A DNA stretch of 64,000 bases from Porphyridium purpureum. Its lineage: Eukaryota. The stretch is from assembly GCA_008690995.1 (NCBI GenBank), contig VRMN01000002.1:1178001-1242000 (forward strand), given 5' to 3'. How positions within the stretch are numbered: position 1 is the first letter of the stretch; each line of letters begins with the position of its first letter. The notes under the pieces were generated by a model that was not told the DNA's origin, made no database searches, and was given only the letters and a program-made list of their open reading frames with translations. Positions 12,750-22,755 of this stretch are shown piece by piece. The translations under genes and the position numbers were made by a program.

Positions 12750-14186
12750 TCACTTTGGAATACGTTCTAACGCAGCAAGAATCTGCTGGACAGCTTGTCT
12801 TGCGGCAGACCGTGCAGAGAGGTCGCCTGTTCGGACGTGCATTTCGGCTCCCTTCAAAATCTGTTGCAGAGAGGTCGACGAGTGCGATGGCAGGCTGCGC
12901 CTAAGCTCGACTGCAAGTTCATTCCAAAATGCTGCAACTAGGCTCGAATGGTGGGATGTGTCCTCCGACTCGTCAGTGTCCTTCTGGAAAGTGGTCTTTG
13001 CCTTCCGCGCCGTGGTGGCCATCTCAAGAATTTCGGGCCATAGCGTCTCTGGGGTGTAGATGTTGTCATCTGTGTATCCTGGTGCTGCAGAATCATGCAC
13101 GCTGGAGCTGCTCAAGAGCACGCGCTTTTTGGCATATACATGCTTACTGAGCATGGCCAAGGCGCTCTCGTACATATGCCGAGTATGTGACGCTTCGCGC
13201 ACGTGGTCACCATCGGCCTTATTCACGATAACCATATCCACGAGCTCCAAAAGACCACGCTTGGATGCCTGCAATTCGTCACCACTGTTGAAGCTCACCA
13301 GAAGGAGTAGCACATCCACAATATCAGCGACAAAGGCTTCACTCTGCCCCACACCCACGGTCTCAACGAGAATGGTGCCGTAACCAGCAAGCTCGGCCAC
13401 CTGGATAAGGTCTGCTGTGGACGGAGCCAGCCCGCCATACGCGCCTCGAGACGCGGAGGCACGAACAAATGCGCGCGGGTGTGTTGCCAGCTCGGGCATT
13501 CGAGCAACATCACCAAGAATGGCGCCGTGTGTCCGTGGGCTTGACGGATCGACGGCCAAAACACACACAGAGTTCCAGCCAGAGTCAGACTCGGGTCCCT
13601 GGTCCTGTCCGTCGAACCGAGAGTCCAAGGCAAGAATGTGCATCGCGAGACGCTGAATGAAGCACGACTTGCCTGTCGCGGACACATTAGCCCATGCCGC
13701 ACGCAAACACCAGTCGGACAATTCTAGTTAATACTGAACCAGCTGAACCAAGACAAACCTGCCGAGGGCGCATTACGTACCAGCGACATGTCAAGTTTGA
13801 AGAGTGAAAGGGAGAGACTTCCTCGAAACTGAGACCACTCCAAACGTACCCACGCCAGGCGTACCGCTGACGCCAATCTTGAGCGCTCGGTTCGGCCGGC
13901 GCAAGCTCGCGTGCGTTTCTCGCAGCTGTTGCATAAGCGCTTGCGCGCGCGCCAAGTGCTCAGGATGATCTGACTCCATCAGCGTCATCGCTTGCGCCAC
14001 AGCGCGAGGCACGCGCCGCATCACGCGCGCAGCCAACTCCTGCATTTCCAGTCTCTCTCTCTCTCTCTCTCTGCCTCTCTGCCTCTCTGCCTCTCTCTGC
14101 CTCTCTGCCTCTCTGCCGCTCTCTCCTCTCCTCTCTCCTCTCCTGTTCCCTCCTCGCCACCTTGCACACACCCGCCATAATCTCAT
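12750..14186 (-). CDS. MMAA: MMAA/MeaB (ArgK) methylmalonyl-CoA mutase-associated GTPase, two exons (14186-13850, 13672-12750)
   Basis: Splicing rebuilds Walker A GTPGVG/KS; LAVDPSS, ILGD..RM, ETVGVGQSE, GDELQ..KRG and VNKADGD motifs. The start is either the ATG at 14186 (Arg-rich, presequence-like) or the ATG at 14045. Confidence 0.9.
13673..13849 (-). other. Spliceosomal intron (177 nt) in MMAA
   Basis: 5' GTACGT donor; CTAAT branch-like site shortly before a CAG acceptor; removal fuses G|GC AAG TCG and restores the P-loop. Confidence 0.88.
14052..14143. repeat. CT-rich microsatellite, (CT)n/(CTCTCTGC)n
   Basis: Direct reading; encodes the REAERQ/RERE tract if the MMAA start at 14186 is used. 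Confidence 0.9.
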
Positions 14187-14267
14187 GTGACTGTACTTGT
14201 AGTACAAATCTCTGCCGCTTCATTTTTGAACGTGAAACATTTCAACCACCATGTACTTAAATAATGA

Positions 14268-14630
14268 TGTGATGACATCGCTGTACGCCCCAACGGCGAG
14301 ACCGGCAGCGGTTCGGTCCTTGTCACCAGGGCGCCGCAACCGGTCGGGCTGGATGGAGACGCTCCGTTGGGGCAGCTAGTTCGCCCGACGGCGAAGACGC
14401 GGGAGGGGGCGCGACCCCTCACCTCCACTCGGGCGACCCCTCCGCAGGGCCGTGCCCGCACGGCAGAAGCGAAGTGCAGTCCAGCGGCTCTATTTAAGCG
14501 CCAGCCTCCTCTCGCCTGGCGACTCGGCACCACTTAGAGATAGGGCTTAGAGGTAAGGTCTTTCGGTTTAGTAAAAGAGAATGGCCTTCTACTACAATCC
14601 GCACCACGGCGCTGCCTCTACCTCTCATGA
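14268..14630 (+). repeat. 5' LTR (TGTGATG...CTCATGA)
   Basis: No differences from 18667-19029 seen by eye; TATA-like TATTTAAG at 14491-14498; AGTAAA poly(A)-signal-like hexamer at 14570-14575. Confidence 0.95.
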
Positions 14631-17600
14631 GGTTATGAGCCCAGCCTATGTGCTGCGGGCAGACTGCGCCAATTACCCCACGTGGAGTATCAGGATGAAA
14701 CTGATGCTTTGCCAGAAAGAGGTTTGGGGAGTCGTCGGGGGTGGGATTTCTGTGGAGTCGGACGGGTTTTCTATCAAGGATGAGAAAGCTAAAGGGCTTA
14801 TCGGGGCCCTGGTTGATGAGATGCTGATGCACGTGGTTGCCGACGCGGGCTCATCTAAAGAGGCATGGGAGCGGCTTGAAGGTATGTCCAAGTCGGCAGC
14901 GCCAACATACGAGCGCGAGCTCCGCAGGAACTTGGCAAACTTTGGTGAGCATGCTGGGAAAGCAGTAGGGGAACTGCTTGGTCTGATGACAATGCTCCGC
15001 CGGGAGCTCGGCGCTCTGGGAGTCGAATTGTCTGAGCCTGAATATGTCCATGCCTTATTCGAGGCGCTTCCGGACGATTTTGCAGCCGCTGAACAAGCAT
15101 GGATTGCTGGTGGTGGAGTGGCTGGAATTGAGAGCATTCAGTCGATGCTGCTCGCGATCGAGCGCCAGGTAGGCAGGCGCAAGGGTGCCGCGATCGGGGG
15201 CGCACACGAACGGTCGCTCTTCGCGGGGCAGACGGATGCCCAGCGCTCGAATGTAAGGCGGGCGAAGTTCGACGGCTCTTGCTGGGACTGTGGAAAATCC
15301 GGGCATACGCGCCGGAACTGCACTCGTCGAGCGCGCGGCAATGCGACAGCCACAGAGGAAGAGGGAGGCACCAAGTCGAACGAGATTGCTATGTTTGCGC
15401 TAAACACCGTAAAGCGTTCGTACGCTGACGCTGTACGCGGGGGCAAGAGGCTTTGGATTCTTGATTCCGGTGCCTCTGCGCACATGACGGGGTGTGTGCA
15501 ACTGCTCTCGAACGTTCGACCATGCAATCATAAGATAAGGACCGCGAACAATGGCGAGATGGAGGCTACAGCAGCCGGAGACGCGCAGGTTGAAGGCCTA
15601 CATCTCCGCAATGTCCTTTATGTTCCAGGACTAGCGCTGGATCTGATATCAATCCCGAAGTTGGCGGCTGAAGGTGCCAAGGTAATGTTCGAAGAAGGAA
15701 AGTGCCTGGTCGAGGACAAGGGCGAGACGACTGTGAGCACACTACGCGACGGGTTATATGCACTGTCTGCCAAGGATCATTCGCCGATGTCAGCGGGCGG
15801 GATCAGCAGCCAGCTGCTGCATGAGAGGCTATGCCATCCGTACGATAGATCTCTGCCATGTGAGATATGCATACTGGCAAAGAGCACAAGGCGTTCATTT
15901 CCGCCAAACGATAGTCGTGCTTCAGTGCCTCTTGAAGTCCTACACTCTGATGTTCTCGAAGTGACTCCGCGAGGCGCGAAAGGAGAACGTTACTTGGTAA
16001 CTCTGGTGGACGATGCCACAGGATTGTCAGCTTGCACTCCCATTCACCGGAAAAGTCAGACCGGTGCTGTACTAATGGCTATGGTATCAATGATGGAGAC
16101 AGCTTGCAAGCAACAGACGAAGACTCTCCGCACAGACAGGGGTACGGAGTACATGAACTTCGCGGTGCGAGAGTGGGCAGCGGCGCGTGATATATCTTTG
16201 AGACCGAGCCCTGCTTACGTCCCAGAAATGAATGGACGTGCTGAACGTTTCAACAGAACCCTCCTCGAAAAGGTACGGGCGGTTGTTCTCGCCAAGAACA
16301 TCAGTAAGGACCTTTGGCCGGAGTTAGCTCCGGCGGTATGCTACGTGCTAAACCGTTCAATGAACTCACGAGGACAGATTCCTATTGCGGTTGCCTGTGG
16401 CGAATCCAGCAGCACCGAGCATTTGCGCGTGCTTGGGTCACCGGCCTACGTCTTTGAGCCAGGACCAGAGAAACTTGATGCCCGCGCCCAGAAAGGGGTG
16501 TTGGTAGGGTACGGAAAGCGACATAAAGTGTATCGCATTCTCTTGAATGGCAGCGTGAGGGAGGTCACCAACGTGCGCATCCAAGAGAAAGAGCGCTTCG
16601 CAGAAACAATGGTCGGTCCTCCCGGCATTGATATACTCAGCGACGAGTCTGAGCCGTTGCACGAGGAGACTAATGGCAATCAAACGTCGCAGATCGAGGA
16701 GGGACCGCATACTGTTGAAAGAGAAGATGTAGAGCCTGCAACGAACGAGTGGACCTTTGAGGAAGATCTATCACTTGCGTCCGGCCTGCACGCGCTTGGC
16801 TGGGGAGAATGGAATAGGATTGTGGCGCGCGATGAGTTAAGGGGCCGCAGCGCTATCGATGCAGAAAGACGTGCCGAAGTGCTCGGCATCACGCACGATA
16901 ACGCGGCTGAGATACTCAACGATCTGTTCCCAGGGCAAAGTGCATTAGTAGCAGAACTGATCACGGACAAGATCACGTTGAACTCTAAGGCGGCAAGCCA
17001 GGCCGTGAAACGTGAGCTAGACGCTGTGATGTCCATGCACGTCTTTGATCCAAAGAAAGTGGTAGAGTTCCGTGAAGCAAGTACCGACCCGAGCGCTCAA
17101 TTCGTGCGCGGAAAGATGATAGTCGCACGCAAGAATGTTGAACAGGATACATCGCAACAGCTACTTAAAGCTCGTTTGGTTGCACAAGGGTGTGTTCTTT
17201 TTAATGGCAGTGGGCACCTCGTTCGAGACGACGATTTTCAGTACGAGCGACCAATCGGACTCCGCTCATCGCGGTATGTGCTCGCTCATGGCAGAGCGGC
17301 AGGAGATCTTGCTAAGTTCGATGTCGATTCTGCGTATCTCTCGGCAGACTTACGCGGCCCGCGCACATATCTTGAGCTGCCTGAAAGCGTGCGACCGGAT
17401 GCCTGGGCAGGATTTGAGCGGCCAGTCGTTCCATTGCAGAAAGCATTGCCCGGACTGCCGCGTTCCGGCGCAGACTTCGGCGCGGAGGCTAGACGCCGAC
17501 TCACCGAACGCGGTTGGCATCAAACGCAGAGCGATATGAACCTTTACCACAAGGTTTTCGAAAGCGCCGACGTCCTGCTCGCGTTGTACGTAGATGACGG

Positions 17601-18936
17601 CCTCTTGGCAGGTGACATTTCGGCATTGGGCTTCGCCATACAAGAAATGCTCGAGCTTTTTAAAATCTCAAAGCCGGTACAGCGTATATCCGAGAACGGC
17701 AGGGTGGATTTTTTGGGAATGCGCGTGCGCGCAGAAAATCAAAACGAGTGGGTTCTGGACAGTGCCGACTACTGCGCACTTTTCGTTAAGGACGCCATGA
17801 AAAAGCTCGGATACAAGGAAGTAGGCAAACATCGCATCGCTCGGAAGGTGCATACCCCACTTCATGATGAGGTGGTGGAACCCGCGACTGCTTCTGACTC
17901 AACATGCTGCGAGCCATGGGTGCGGAGTTTGATTGGGCAACTGATGTGGCTGGCCAGAGCAGGGCGCCCAGATGTTGCGCACGCCGCGGCATGGATTGCT
18001 AGACACGTCGACGCGTGGAACGATGCAGCTGCAATGGCTCTTGACCGTACCGTGCGTTACCTAGCCTGGCATACGAATCTCGGAATCCCGTTCAAGCGGC
18101 CACAGGTAACGACGAAGCAGGGCCTTTCGATGGCGCAAGTGGATGCTTATAGCGACGCAGATTACGCGGGCTGCTTGAAAACTCGGAAGTCAACCTCTGG
18201 GTTCCTGGTATTTGCGCGGGTGGGTGAAGTGGATTATCTGATTGATTGGCATTCGAGCCGACAGCGAGCTTGCAGCACAAGTACCACAGAATCCGAACTC
18301 GCGGCATTAACGCACACTGTAAAACTGGGTGTGATGCCGATTCTGCTTCTCCAAGAGCATATGCGAAAACAAGCAAGAGAATCATGCCATGCAAAGCCGC
18401 TCACCCCGATCGTTCGATGCGACAACGAAGCCGCGGTCGCGAGCGTGAAGAAGGGATGGTCCGACAAGCTCCTGCACATGACAAAGACGCACGGCGTCGA
18501 ACTCGCATGGCTTCATGAGCTCACAGAGCAGACCAAGAATCTCTTGTTGATGAGAGTAGGAACCAAGCAAAATACCGCGGATATGATGACAAAGGCGCTG
18601 AGCGCAGACAAATTTGGTCTTCATCGAGGACGAATCCTGTGTGTTGCGGCGTCCAGCGAGGGGGCGTGTGATGACATCGCTGTACGCCCCAACGGCGAGA
18701 CCGGCAGCGGTTCGGTCCTTGTCACCAGGGCGCCGCAACCGGTCGGGCTGGATGGAGACGCTCCGTTGGGGCAGCTAGTTCGCCCGACGGCGAAGACGCG
18801 GGAGGGGGCGCGACCCCTCACCTCCACTCGGGCGACCCCTCCGCAGGGCCGTGCCCGCACGGCAGAAGCGAAGTGCAGTCCAGCGGCTCTATTTAAGCGC
18901 CAGCCTCCTCTCGCCTGGCGACTCGGCACCACTTAG
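14581..18936 (+). CDS. Copia Gag-Pol polyprotein (1451 aa)
   Basis: Gag NYPTWSIRM; zinc knuckle CWDCGKSGHTRRNC; protease WILDSGASAHM; integrase HSDV/TDRGTEY/NGRAERFNRTL; RT KARLVAQG and YVDD; RNase H YSDADYAG, STTESE, DNEAA and ADMMTKAL. Confidence 0.96.
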   Translation: MAFYYNPHHGAASTSHEVMSPAYVLRADCANYPTWSIRMKLMLCQKEVWGVVGGGISVESDGFSIKDEKAKGLIGALVDEMLMHVVADAGSSKEAWERLEGMSKSAAPTYERELRRNLANFGEHAGKAVGELLGLMTMLRRELGALGVELSEPEYVHALFEALPDDFAAAEQAWIAGGGVAGIESIQSMLLAIERQVGRRKGAAIGGAHERSLFAGQTDAQRSNVRRAKFDGSCWDCGKSGHTRRNCTRRARGNATATEEEGGTKSNEIAMFALNTVKRSYADAVRGGKRLWILDSGASAHMTGCVQLLSNVRPCNHKIRTANNGEMEATAAGDAQVEGLHLRNVLYVPGLALDLISIPKLAAEGAKVMFEEGKCLVEDKGETTVSTLRDGLYALSAKDHSPMSAGGISSQLLHERLCHPYDRSLPCEICILAKSTRRSFPPNDSRASVPLEVLHSDVLEVTPRGAKGERYLVTLVDDATGLSACTPIHRKSQTGAVLMAMVSMMETACKQQTKTLRTDRGTEYMNFAVREWAAARDISLRPSPAYVPEMNGRAERFNRTLLEKVRAVVLAKNISKDLWPELAPAVCYVLNRSMNSRGQIPIAVACGESSSTEHLRVLGSPAYVFEPGPEKLDARAQKGVLVGYGKRHKVYRILLNGSVREVTNVRIQEKERFAETMVGPPGIDILSDESEPLHEETNGNQTSQIEEGPHTVEREDVEPATNEWTFEEDLSLASGLHALGWGEWNRIVARDELRGRSAIDAERRAEVLGITHDNAAEILNDLFPGQSALVAELITDKITLNSKAASQAVKRELDAVMSMHVFDPKKVVEFREASTDPSAQFVRGKMIVARKNVEQDTSQQLLKARLVAQGCVLFNGSGHLVRDDDFQYERPIGLRSSRYVLAHGRAAGDLAKFDVDSAYLSADLRGPRTYLELPESVRPDAWAGFERPVVPLQKALPGLPRSGADFGAEARRRLTERGWHQTQSDMNLYHKVFESADVLLALYVDDGLLAGDISALGFAIQEMLELFKISKPVQRISENGRVDFLGMRVRAENQNEWVLDSADYCALFVKDAMKKLGYKEVGKHRIARKVHTPLHDEVVEPATASDSTCCEPWVRSLIGQLMWLARAGRPDVAHAAAWIARHVDAWNDAAAMALDRTVRYLAWHTNLGIPFKRPQVTTKQGLSMAQVDAYSDADYAGCLKTRKSTSGFLVFARVGEVDYLIDWHSSRQRACSTSTTESELAALTHTVKLGVMPILLLQEHMRKQARESCHAKPLTPIVRCDNEAAVASVKKGWSDKLLHMTKTHGVELAWLHELTEQTKNLLLMRVGTKQNTADMMTKALSADKFGLHRGRILCVAASSEGACDDIAVRPNGETGSGSVLVTRAPQPVGLDGDAPLGQLVRPTAKTREGARPLTSTRATPPQGRARTAEAKCSPAALFKRQPPLAWRLGTT
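14631..14645 (+). promoter_or_regulatory. Primer binding site complementary to the anticodon arm of initiator tRNA-Met (half-tRNA priming)
   Basis: GGTTATGAGCCCAGC immediately follows the LTR; it matches the GGTTATG(A/G)GCCC PBS type of Ty5 and Drosophila copia. Confidence 0.85.
18658..18666 (+). promoter_or_regulatory. Polypurine tract
   Basis: GAGGGGGCG lies directly 5' of the 3' LTR. Confidence 0.7.
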
Positions 18937-19029
18937 AGATAGGGCTTAGAGGTAAGGTCTTTCGGTTTAGTAAAAGAGAATGGCCTTCTACTACAATCCG
19001 CACCACGGCGCTGCCTCTACCTCTCATGA
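18667..19029 (+). repeat. 3' LTR
   Basis: Direct repeat of 14268-14630 (offset 4399), followed by AATGA. Confidence 0.95.
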
Positions 19030-19482
19030 AATGAGTTATAAAACGATATGTTTATACTGTACTTCATCGCGGACCGCTGTACATTTTGTTTGTTAGCATG
19101 CGGCGCGTGGTAGCATTGAATTGTTGTTGGTTGGTATTTGTGATTCGTTAGTACAGTTGTGGATGTGAAGCGTGTACACCTCCACGATTAATTTACGATT
19201 TTCTAATAATTTTTTTTCGCGCCAAAGGAGAATAAAGAAGGCGAAGTTGGGGGGAGGGAAGAGAATCAGTGAGCGCGCGCGGTGGCATGGGGGTTCGTGG
19301 GGGTGTCGGGAGGAGGGGGGAGGGGTGGGTGGGATTGTGTGGGTGGTAGAAGAGAAGCGAGTGCTCGGGAAGAACAGTAGGTCGGGGGGCGGGAAGGCGC
19401 ATGCATGCTGCCGGACTGGAGCAGCGCAGAGGGGGGGGAAGGACGTGCGTGAGGAGAGGGAGAGACGGCGCTGGAGGTCGCC

Positions 19483-22400
19483 ATGCAGAGAATTGATGTG
19501 GACCAGACTGGCGAGGATGGATATGGTGTGATTGATTTTAGAAAGTACTTTGCGCCTGCCTCGCGTGCGGCCGCGGCTGCCGCGCGAGCAGACGATGTGG
19601 ACAGTGACGAGGAAATGGATCACGTGATGCCGGCGCGCGGCGACGCTACGGCACGCAGTTTGGAAAGCGCCATCCGAATGAGAGAGGACCCGCTCGATGC
19701 GATTATCAGCAAATACGCCAACGGTGATAGCCAGATGTCTGCTCTTGGCCTCGATTCCGCGAGGGACCCCGCGCAGCCGGACGCCGCAGCACAGAAGAAA
19801 AAGAAAAAGGCGAAGAAGGGCACAACTTACAATCCCGAAGACGACTATGACTATGACGACGATTTCATCGACGACGAGGAGTTGATGTATGCAGGTGAAA
19901 TAGCGGATTTCCAAAAGGAAGAAGCGAGAAAAGTGCTGCCGGTACATGAAGGCTTTTATATTGTTCGCGGAGGCATCCAGATGAAAACGCAGACCGAAAC
20001 GGGGACAGATGCCGCGGCGCACTCATCCGCAACTGCAGCAAACTCTAAGCAAGGCGAAAACGGCAAGGAAAAAAGCAAGATTGTGTCGAAGCATGAGTGG
20101 CTCACGCAGTACGAAAAGACGCTCGCGAGTAAGAAAAAGACCAAGAAATCAGCACTGGCTGCTCCTGCCGCATCTGGGGCGCCCGAGAAGACAAAAACTG
20201 TGGAATCCCAGTCAAAGTCGACCAGTAAGAGCCCTGCAGCTGAAATTTTGAGTGGGTCAGCGTCGCCCATATCCAAGTCCAAGCTCGTCAAGTCGAAATC
20301 AAAAGTGACCGGCGGATCGTCCGCTCCTTCATCTACTAAGAATAATAAGGGTGGCTCCGCAACCAAGGCTCAGCCAGCCATCTGGTCTGGTGATGGTGCA
20401 GCCTGTGGTACGGGTGGGACGGGCTCAGCTTCATTGTTGGACCCATTTTCGAGTGCAACTCTCGATCGGAGTCTTGTCGAAGACTCGTCGTCTCAGCTTC
20501 CGCAGACGAGCAAGGCCACAGTGCTGCGAACGCCCGAGCTAGACGAGTGTCTTGAAAACATAAGATGTACGGTGCTGCGTCTCTTCGAGGAAAACAATAC
20601 GAGCCGCAAGCCCAAACTGGATCACCCTGAAATGCTGACTTTGTTGGACACGTTTTTCATGGAAGCCGTCAAGAGCAAGTTGGCAACGGCCCCAACCACT
20701 GAAAAATGCAAAAAGGAGCGCCTCTTCCCTATCCACGACCATTTGTGGGGCATCATATCCATCTTGTTGCGTTGCCAGCGGGAGAAGCTGGAAGGCATCG
20801 GCTTTGAGTTGTTCTGGGAGGCCAAAGTGGAGGAAGCGCAAAAACGGCTCAACGAGAAAGTTGATACGCTCGCTAGCGAGATGGCTGCCATTCGCGCCGC
20901 GGCAGGGAACGAGATTGACCATGATCAGGAAGGATCGAGCGAGTATGAAGACGACGCAGCCGATGTCAGCAATGAGCAGCAGCGTGACGTACCGCAGAAT
21001 GAAACAGACGAAGGAACGGCCGGCACGGATGTCGCTCGAAGCGCAAGCATAAAACCGCCGGTGGTATTGCGCGTCGACGGCAGCCAGGATGACGACTTTG
21101 AGGAACAAACGCCCTTGCGAACACGTTCCGTGCCTGAGGAGCAGGATAGCGTGAACGGGCCTCCGGCAGCATCGGCCGGTGCACGGAAGCGCAAGCGACC
21201 AAAGCGGGTAGCAGGTGGTGAAGGACCGAACGAAAATGCGCTTCTGCCTCTGACCTGGGACCGGGCAATGGATGCAAAAATCTACGGCATTTACTCGTCC
21301 TTGCACGCCGAGTTTCGCGCAAAGGCGCAAGTCAAGCCACAAACGGCGACTCGGAAGTTCCGCGCTCGCCTTGAGAGTTATTTTGCCAAGGTACATGCCA
21401 AGTGCTTCCAGGGCTTTGATGTCAAAGTGCAAGATCTTTTGGACGCCTACAAGCGTGAGTACGACATCGTGAGCGAGCAAGACAGGAAACGGCGCGAAAT
21501 GGAAAAAGAGCTGCGCAAGGAGCAGCGAGAGCGCAAGGAAGAAGAGCGGAGGCTCGCAGAACAGGCCAAGGCTGACGCAGGCGAAGCAGTGGGCTCGGGA
21601 AAAGGCGCCGAAGTGACTGCTGTGGCGTCAGGATCGGTGTCCGTCGCTGCGAAGCAGGCACCTGCGAGATCTTCTGCTGAGACTAGTCCTGGGATGCGGT
21701 CTTCTGCGTTTGCTCAGATTTTGTCTGGCGGTGTTTCTGGGAGCTCGGCTGGCGTGCCCGCAGCACTGCCTAAGAAGGTCAAGAAGCAGAAGACCACAGC
21801 ACTTTCGGCAAGCGATGTGGTTTCTAATGCTAATGCGCAGCAGAGTCTTCATGCAAAGGCTAACGTTGACTCAGGAAAAGCGGAGCCTACGAACAAGGTG
21901 CGTAAGATTGTAGCGCCTGTGGACAGTTTGAACAGTGGCGCAGCACCGACCTCGATCAAAGAAGGAAGTGCTGACGTAGTGTCGCCGAAGGCCCCGAAGA
22001 AGCGAAAAGTAGTCGGAAGTCAGGGCGCGATAAATGAGGTCCCCATGGACATGGAACGATCCGTTTCCATGTCGCCAGCGATGGCCAAAGATCAAGTTGT
22101 TCAGGCTCTCAATGACTTCCGTGCGCATGGGTCAGAGCAAAATGGCACAGTTTCGATATTATCGTCGCCGCTGAAAGAGAGTATGGCTGTTGCAGTCGTG
22201 GCAAGTCCAATAGCACTTCCTGTTGGACTTCTCGTTTCTCCTTCGTGCCTGAAAGGTGTGACGTTCCTGCTCGTGGGCAGCTTTCCAGAGTTGACCGAAA
22301 ACATCAAGGCCCGAATCCGTTCGCTTGACGGGCGTTGTCCTCCAAAGTTCTCCAGCGTTATCACACACGGTCTGGTCGGTGCCCAGAAGAAGAGTAACGC

Positions 22401-22755
22401 TACAGAGTCCGGTGTGCACAAAAAGATGAAGCTACTTGAGGAGAAGAATATCCCTCTTGTGCACGGGCTTGAGGGTCTTTTTAAAATGATTGGGCAACGA
22501 AGTATTGGATGTGCGGATGCTAGGCGTGTCGATGGCTCAGCGTACGAGCAAATCGACACGTCCGGTCTTCCAACTCACCCTAGATCTGCGGAGTCTAGAG
22601 CTGATGCGAAGCTACCAATATTCAAAGTCCAGCCGTCGCATGCACCGCTGCCCGAGCTCACGACAATACATGCAGCACAAGCGACACTTGTAAGTTCAGC
22701 TCCGCGTGACAAGCTACCGAAAGCCTTCGATGGGAGCCCTGTTGTGCTGGACTGA
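19483..22755 (+). CDS. Ubinuclein/Hpc2-like HIRA-complex subunit (HUN domain) with a C-terminal BRCT-like domain
   Basis: YDYDDDFIDDEEL...EGFYIVRGGI matches the HUN/HRD motif; LKGVTFLLVG...IRSLDGRC...VITHGLVG...KNIPLV resembles BRCT. Confidence 0.75.
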   Translation: MQRIDVDQTGEDGYGVIDFRKYFAPASRAAAAAARADDVDSDEEMDHVMPARGDATARSLESAIRMREDPLDAIISKYANGDSQMSALGLDSARDPAQPDAAAQKKKKKAKKGTTYNPEDDYDYDDDFIDDEELMYAGEIADFQKEEARKVLPVHEGFYIVRGGIQMKTQTETGTDAAAHSSATAANSKQGENGKEKSKIVSKHEWLTQYEKTLASKKKTKKSALAAPAASGAPEKTKTVESQSKSTSKSPAAEILSGSASPISKSKLVKSKSKVTGGSSAPSSTKNNKGGSATKAQPAIWSGDGAACGTGGTGSASLLDPFSSATLDRSLVEDSSSQLPQTSKATVLRTPELDECLENIRCTVLRLFEENNTSRKPKLDHPEMLTLLDTFFMEAVKSKLATAPTTEKCKKERLFPIHDHLWGIISILLRCQREKLEGIGFELFWEAKVEEAQKRLNEKVDTLASEMAAIRAAAGNEIDHDQEGSSEYEDDAADVSNEQQRDVPQNETDEGTAGTDVARSASIKPPVVLRVDGSQDDDFEEQTPLRTRSVPEEQDSVNGPPAASAGARKRKRPKRVAGGEGPNENALLPLTWDRAMDAKIYGIYSSLHAEFRAKAQVKPQTATRKFRARLESYFAKVHAKCFQGFDVKVQDLLDAYKREYDIVSEQDRKRREMEKELRKEQRERKEEERRLAEQAKADAGEAVGSGKGAEVTAVASGSVSVAAKQAPARSSAETSPGMRSSAFAQILSGGVSGSSAGVPAALPKKVKKQKTTALSASDVVSNANAQQSLHAKANVDSGKAEPTNKVRKIVAPVDSLNSGAAPTSIKEGSADVVSPKAPKKRKVVGSQGAINEVPMDMERSVSMSPAMAKDQVVQALNDFRAHGSEQNGTVSILSSPLKESMAVAVVASPIALPVGLLVSPSCLKGVTFLLVGSFPELTENIKARIRSLDGRCPPKFSSVITHGLVGAQKKSNATESGVHKKMKLLEEKNIPLVHGLEGLFKMIGQRSIGCADARRVDGSAYEQIDTSGLPTHPRSAESRADAKLPIFKVQPSHAPLPELTTIHAAQATLVSSAPRDKLPKAFDGSPVVLD

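Follow-up and report, generated by a model that had tools for sequence, protein, structure and literature searches.

The polyprotein of a copia-type LTR retrotransposon in the red alga Porphyridium purpureum carries, between integrase and reverse transcriptase (RT), a real, conserved, lineage-wide and apparently undescribed Myb/SANT-like domain, for which we infer a role in integration-site choice. The element lies on contig VRMN01000002.1 in a 64,000-nucleotide stretch, here called the window, to which all coordinates refer. The original prediction had been made without knowledge of any Myb-bearing copia integrase, and we likewise found no Myb-bearing LTR element in the full-text literature searched, although Repbase, GyDB, REXdb and subscription papers, which lie outside that scope, could hold one. 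The same search of the full-text literature returned no study of Porphyridium retrotransposon domains, and the source names of these element proteins mention only copia or Pol.

The element and its Myb/SANT-like domain

The copia element is intact and young, a complete LTR retrotransposon at 14268-19029. It is flanked by a 5-bp target site duplication, AATGA (14263-14267 and 19030-19034), one copy of which is present at the empty site in run X5. The two 363-bp LTRs (14268-14630 and 18667-19029, on the plus strand, as are all element features given below) are 100% identical, and the loose ends of other insertions, seen in reads of other runs, fall at 14267/14268 and 14630/14631. Directly after the 5' LTR comes the primer binding site (14631-14644), which we take to be of the half-tRNA-iMet type known from copia and Ty5; the junction falls at this position also in other families, whose LTRs differ. 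The polypurine tract (18655-18666) adjoins the 3' LTR. The order Gag-protease-integrase-RT-RNase H, the copia-type RT, the LTRs, the primer site, the polypurine tract and the 5-bp duplication are all those of a Ty1/copia element; the LTR termini, which read TG...GA, depart from the TG...CA that is usual, though not universal, in this group. Three other families with the same primer site have LTRs ending in CA, as against GA in the window family. Because the site is empty in run X5 and the LTR of this family is joined to different flanks in other runs, the family must have moved recently. A P. purpureum protein on record is 99% identical to the window polyprotein. Copy P0002, which is nearly identical, has 12 residue differences, all of them outside the Myb domain; since about one would be expected within it, these differences, like those of strain variants, say nothing about constraint on the domain.

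A single gag-pol open reading frame of 1451 aa (14581-18936) begins at an ATG within the 5' LTR, the next ATG being at 14635. No stop codon closes the pol frame ahead of the 3' LTR, into which it continues for about 90 codons (18667-18936), as it does in copy P0002. The frame encodes a copia-type Gag with a CCHC knuckle (14695-15324; Pfam Retrotran_gag_2, E 2e-15; zf-CCHC weak, E 0.35), an aspartic protease (15454-15675; Pol_BBD, E 2e-14), and an integrase core with an SH3-like domain, both of classical copia type (15928-16596; rve, E 1e-9; SH3_retrovirus, E 5e-12). An acidic, unconserved linker unlike that of the sister family (16597-16731) leads into the Myb/SANT-like domain (16732-16920), which is acidic (pI 5.0). 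A hydrophobic stretch at 16939-16965 marks the start of the RT, and the RT and RNase H together occupy 16945-18666, the RT belonging to a divergent copia lineage in RT trees (RVT_2 at 17143-17796, E 5e-11) and the RNase H being assigned by motif and position only.

The layout of the domain agrees in its particulars with the original prediction. Pfam places it after the integrase core and SH3 region (rve, SH3_retrovirus) and before RVT_2; the peptide at 16741-16887 (plus strand) is in frame with the gag-pol open reading frame and starts three residues before the first Trp, which is residue 724 from the ATG at 14581 and lies at nt 16750; the second core Trp follows after 19 intervening residues, and Ala occupies the place of the third aromatic. 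The Pfam Myb_DNA-binding profile matched the 49-aa piece at E 9.4e-5, with a score (22.9 bits) below the curated cut-off of 24.4 and with coverage of helices 1 and 2 only. The best sequence matches among solved structures were TRF1 Myb domains (E 0.002), the first match in the ESM Atlas was a Myb cluster (0.94), and a profile built from the family retrieved c-Myb at E 3e-10. When the Pfam Myb profile was run against the aligned domain segments, seven of the nine matched at E values up to 1, the best at 5e-7.

Helices are predicted at approximately 16756-16797, 16810-16824 and 16852-16884, with a short fourth helix at 16903-16917. An AlphaFold model made with eight relatives (best pLDDT 83.8) has three helices and a short fourth and shows the three-helix, helix-turn-helix Myb/SANT fold that had been proposed; two of five alignment-based models were confident, the other three falling below pLDDT 58, and a single-sequence model was poor (pLDDT 57.6). 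The Foldseek list for the window domain model was headed by Myb/SANT domains, the TRF1 Myb domain first (rmsd 1.2 A over 47 columns), with no match at E <= 0.001. VIA tied the repeats of Cdc5, TRF1/2 and c-Myb at Z 7.2-7.8, a range that it rates as middling, the Cdc5 Myb domain giving Z 7.8 and rmsd 2.0 with 50 aligned positions; SANT domains of CoREST, Ada2 and RSC were also among the fold matches, at lower rank. Taken together, the profile, sequence, Atlas and model matches lend good support to the predicted membership of the Myb/SANT fold class, and the modeled fold alone does not tell which Myb subclass the window domain belongs to.

Distribution, conservation and charge of the domain

A HMMER search with the region from SH3 to RT returned 102 proteins, and the Myb domain was found in the same slot in 9 of the 14 P. 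purpureum families that we examined in this RT lineage. Pfam, whose profiles were built independently of the window element, placed Myb before the RT in P0011, P0012, P0015 and P0021 (among 30 proteins scanned; whole-protein E 3e-5 to 0.19) and at the same site in P0126. Profiles from these Pfam-positive families added P0023, P0032 and P0014. Counting P0126 and P0014 as one, these families make nine together with the window family and P0003/P0142, and all are named P. purpureum. The domain was absent from five P. purpureum families (P0007, P0009, P0008/P0117, P0039 and P0048), two of which have full-length open reading frames of 1450 and 1507 aa, so that the domain must be regarded as accessory. 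Twelve of the 15 members listed of the 17-member P0126 cluster have the whole domain, one has half and two gave no match. Two annotated proteins of the P0126/P0014 family, P0113 and P0137, are without the first half of the domain, which may reflect either real deletions or gene-model artefacts.

Outside the nine families, no Myb match was seen in the other retroelement proteins among 146, a set in which the source was checked for 30 entries. When the Myb profile was run on longer proteins, with 7996 candidates scored, it recovered ten element proteins of P. purpureum and a single multi-Myb protein, from a fungus. A search for the domain in proteins of 183-583 aa found nothing, 32 metagenome loci retrieved by integrase gave no Myb match, and a viral collection contained no relative of the element. 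Among the sequences searched, Myb-bearing LTR elements may thus, on weak evidence, be limited to Porphyridium.

In relatives, the slot between integrase and RT is filled by other modules: a Cys-rich finger, a coiled coil or a weak zf-CW match. A Cys-rich motif (CxxC, CxxC, H, C, CxC) occurs in 18 of the 146 proteins (P0010, P0013, P0016, P0017, P0018, P0020, P0021, P0035, P0048, P0058, P0064, P0089, P0102, P0123 and four near copies) and lies between integrase and RT where inspected. More widely distributed than the Myb domain, it had no Pfam match in those of the proteins that were scanned, and this integrase class may have in it a zinc finger not yet described. The motif stands ahead of the Myb domain in P0021, and stretches resembling it occur in P0023 and P0032. 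P0008/P0117, the sister of P0126, has a coiled coil in place of the Myb domain, and P0038 has the weak zf-CW match before its RT. Elsewhere in the polyprotein, P0044 has an AAA_28 domain after RNase H.

The domain is kept across families while the linkers drift, a pattern that the original prediction had proposed as a check. Between the window and sister families, the alignment score of the domain (103) was reached by none of 2000 shuffles, whereas 1564 of 2000 shuffles scored as high as the linker, which is therefore not significantly similar. This pair keeps the hydrophobic core and fourth helix, and its linkers no longer resemble each other and differ in length by about 70 residues. In the trio P0011, P0012 and P0015, the domain is 62-70% identical and the RT 62-67%, while the 45 residues upstream of the domain are 22-27% identical against a shuffled baseline of 19%. 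Domain identity exceeded linker identity in 32 of all 36 family pairs, which are non-independent and were compared by protein identity. Judged in this way, the Myb domain is under constraint. Domain identity does not follow RT identity across family pairs (rho 0.13, p 0.46), and constraint appears weaker between the window family and its sister because their domains are 39% identical as against 57% for the RT.

The nine versions differ in charge. Seven families have a basic domain core (pI 8.4-10.7), and the arm leading up to its first Trp holds two to four basic residues; five of these families keep a Lys in helix 3 at the position of the c-Myb repeat 2 Lys that contacts DNA. The domains of the window family and of its sister are acidic (pI 5.0 and 4.5, respectively) and lack the basic arm, the window domain having 6 Lys and Arg against 10 Asp and Glu and an 8-residue arm without a basic residue. 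This acidic version was found on the classical integrase only, and the acidic pair represents one event, not two. The window domain does not have the three aromatics and the basic surface or recognition helix of a classical DNA-binding Myb repeat, although the seven relatives have the basic surface. According to passages of PMC6353875, a basic pI marks DNA-binding Myb domains, and acidic SANT domains bind the histone H4 tail and not DNA; the pI of 5.0 of the window domain agrees with the acidic pI described there for histone-binding SANT domains. By that yardstick, the seven basic versions resemble DNA binders and the acidic pair resembles SANT domains that bind histones.

The third aromatic position is Ala in the window family and six others, and Leu or Thr in the other two. 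The original prediction had taken this Ala as a hint that the domain binds protein or chromatin. That DNA-base reading is improbable here still stands, but the Ala does not speak for it: as it is common to five basic families, it is a mark of the lineage and not a sign of lost DNA binding. Instead, the acidic charge and the absent basic arm are the features suggesting that the window domain probably does not read DNA bases.

Two integrase types and the origin of the domain

The integrase tree puts four families (the window family, its sister, P0007 and P0009) together with generic copia elements (support 100, branch 0.95), and the other Porphyridium families, several of them with gypsy-type Gag and protease, lie far off. 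In the RT tree, all these families form one divergent lineage apart from generic copia. In tests on 27 proteins selected as carriers of both domains (quick trees, LG+G4), the RT grouping was rejected when forced on the integrase data (p-AU 1e-4), and the reverse arrangement, placing the four classical-integrase families with generic copia on RT alone, was not rejected (p-AU 0.095). Because the integrase and RT trees disagree, the window element is likely a chimera in which a classical copia 5' half has been joined to the RT half of the divergent lineage, the Myb domain lying with the RT half. The Myb domain occurs on two distant integrase types and therefore behaves as a portable module would. 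The disagreement between integrase and RT is a further clear example of distant LTR lineages having recombined. P0011, P0021, P0126 and P0144 combine gypsy-type Gag and protease with a copia-type RT in copia order.

A tree of the 9 element domains and 20 cellular Myb repeats gave little resolution; in it a single origin of the element domains was neither rejected (p-AU 0.28) nor established, and no donor gene was identified. The two best matches of the window domain are other element domains. The closest non-element matches are P0080 and P0033, multi-repeat Myb proteins whose repeats are without the third Trp, P0033 ending in a chromodomain; a profile made without the two acidic families scores the P0080 repeats above the window domain. 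It is possible, to judge from these similarities, that P0080 and P0033 are kin of the donor.

Insertion site and proposed function

The element was said to sit in a gap between divergently read genes, and this was borne out: a MeaB-like gene (minus strand) and a HUN-domain gene (plus strand) read apart, with a gap of about 670 bp without the element if MeaB starts at the ATG at 14045. The MeaB-like GTPase (12750-14046) is split over two frames, probably by a short intron near 13730-13790, and the HUN-domain protein (19483-22755) has a weak BRCT match. Between the two genes lies an AT-rich host island (14159-19275) of 350 bp without the element. The 100 bp around the insertion site have a GC content of 0.34, a value as low as which is found in 0.13% of host 100-bp stretches, making this the most AT-rich island in the window. 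Nine TGTAC or GTACA matches occur in the 350 bp of the island (14159-14267 and 19035-19275), and the motif, perhaps a host promoter element, recurs in one flank from another run.

The flanks of the window copy itself have 9 and 7 G+C of 30, and the five single-record flanks listed from other runs have 11, 6, 11, 9 and 14 by hand count. Four of these five have at most 11 G+C, as against 5.8% of the non-ORF 30-mers of the window (p ~5e-5, with the threshold chosen post hoc), in a count that leaves out four merged two-record rows with 13-17 G+C of 30 and in which one flank may be that of a diverged LTR. An AT-rich insertion bias is plausible, but it cannot be credited to the Myb domain, because selection, or the integrase core, might equally produce it. 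The 64-kb window contains no tRNA gene, and no fixed target sequence was seen in the insertion flanks listed.

We put at about 0.5 the probability that the segment serves as an integrase C-terminal tether to host chromatin, biasing insertion to AT-rich intergenic gaps and, in the version found here, reading chromatin or protein. The argument starts from the domain, its position and its conservation over nine families, and continues through the predicted three-helix Myb fold to the fate of the domain on cleavage. In all nine families the domain lies upstream of the hydrophobic stretch that starts the RT, a similar stretch being present in Myb-less relatives; in the sister family, 93 residues separate the two, including an Arg-rich motif that is also found before the RT in Myb-less relatives. 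Because the domain precedes an RT-start stretch common to Myb-less relatives, the protease would cut downstream of the domain, which, on this sequence evidence, likely remains on the integrase. The seven basic versions would then grip DNA through helix 3 and the basic arm, the acidic version of the window family and its sister would contact histone tails or a chromatin protein, and the AT-rich site bias would come from the tether, not from the integrase core or selection alone. Targeting through the integrase C terminus is described for Ty1 and Ty5 in passages of PMC5911963.

Several features of the acidic pair could also be accounted for if the domain, functional in the wider lineage, were a decaying passenger in these two families, brought in with the RT half as the chimera arose. 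The loss of the basic arm and of the basic helix-3 residue, the acidic pI, the greater divergence of the domain (39% identical) than of the RT (57%), its absence from two other classical-integrase families and the poor recognition of the sister's domain, which has no Pfam Myb match and an Atlas score of only 0.75, all point that way. We nevertheless think decay rather unlikely, as the hydrophobic core and fourth helix have been kept in two families whose linkers no longer resemble each other, and the Myb fold is still predicted. An action on the element itself, through binding of the LTR or cDNA ends or through help with nuclear import or intasome assembly, has a precedent in Harbinger Myb-like proteins, which bind element ends and transposase according to passages of PMC9179366, and would suit the seven basic versions and the unusual TG...GA ends of the window family, which contrast with the CA of the three families sharing its primer site. 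The acidic window version fits poorly with binding to its own DNA, however, and close relatives without the domain have full-length open reading frames, which makes self-binding unlikely.

The acidic, SANT-like character of the window domain, the lower-ranking CoREST, Ada2 and RSC matches and the accessory distribution would also agree with a domain that counters silencing or regulates element transcription by recruiting or mimicking SANT complexes, leaving site choice unchanged. We regard this as quite improbable: the domain is fused to what should be a low-abundance catalytic protein and is not a free open reading frame, and its position fits known targeting parts. Telobox domains (TRF1/TRF2/TRB), for their part, are marked by a conserved helix-3 motif and a basic arm. 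The original prediction had counted the telobox type among the closest patterns, and TRF1/TRF2 do head the sequence and Foldseek lists, but steering of insertion to telomeric or telomere-like repeats by a telobox is very improbable. VIA ties TRF with Cdc5 and c-Myb, the phmmer alignment to TRF1 ends within helix 3, that helix contains acidic residues and no Trp, and the domain as a whole is acidic and has no basic arm, so that telobox membership falls away. Telomere targeting fares no better, since the copy sits among genes, the single TTAGGG and single CCCTAA in the window are both far off, and the flanks listed include no tandem repeat.

Tethering of the integrase to chromatin, the reading that we prefer, invites comparison with other elements. 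To our knowledge, few targeting modules have been described in LTR retrotransposons, those of copia elements being short peptides, as in Ty1 and Ty5; the chromodomain of chromovirus integrases reportedly also has a role in targeting. Ty1 and Ty5 resemble the window element in copia domain order, an accessory integrase C-terminal region and a gene-dense host, and in passages of PMC5911963 this region is described as binding the Pol III subunit Rpc40 in Ty1 and Sir4 in Ty5; the window element differs in having a predicted folded Myb/SANT domain of 50-60 aa, with no host partner on record. In gypsy chromoviruses, a cellular-type chromatin domain is likewise appended after the integrase (passages of PMC3248453), but it belongs to another superfamily and fold and ends Pol, whereas the window Myb domain is internal and precedes the RT. 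Myb-like domains in retroelement proteins, often beside zinc fingers, are also found in R2, which uses a zinc finger and Myb for site choice (passages of PMC12203849), and in R4/Dong, where a Myb-like domain has been proposed to act in site choice (passages of PMC7998251). Three Porphyridium families pair a Cys-rich stretch with Myb and so recall this finger-Myb pairing, but R2 and R4/Dong are non-LTR, target-primed elements with fixed targets, unlike an LTR element with a DDE integrase. In PIF/Harbinger, a Myb/SANT domain works with a DDE enzyme (passages of PMC9179366), although there the element is a DNA transposon and the Myb domain, on a separate open reading frame, binds the ends of its own element. 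The Myb-bearing relatives with gypsy-type Gag and protease and copia-type RT recall, in a likeness drawn by title alone, PyRE10G of Porphyra yezoensis, reportedly a copia-like element with a gypsy-like integrase; the window element differs in its classical copia Gag, protease and integrase.

A fuller history is possible, although we lean against it as a whole: an LTR lineage of red algae would have taken up a Myb domain to tether its integrase, the domain would have moved with the RT to a second, distant integrase, where a basic, DNA-reading form would have given way to an acidic, chromatin-reading one, and sister families would swap modules in the slot. If this is true, these elements would form a natural set in which a single retroelement chassis carries exchangeable targeting domains, and would provide a copia counterpart of the chromovirus chromodomain. 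If the domain is a portable tether, it would also bear on the design of targeted integrases. The Myb/SANT domain, present in nine families in basic and acidic versions and missing in close sisters, amounts to a natural experiment on the evolution of site choice in a compact genome.
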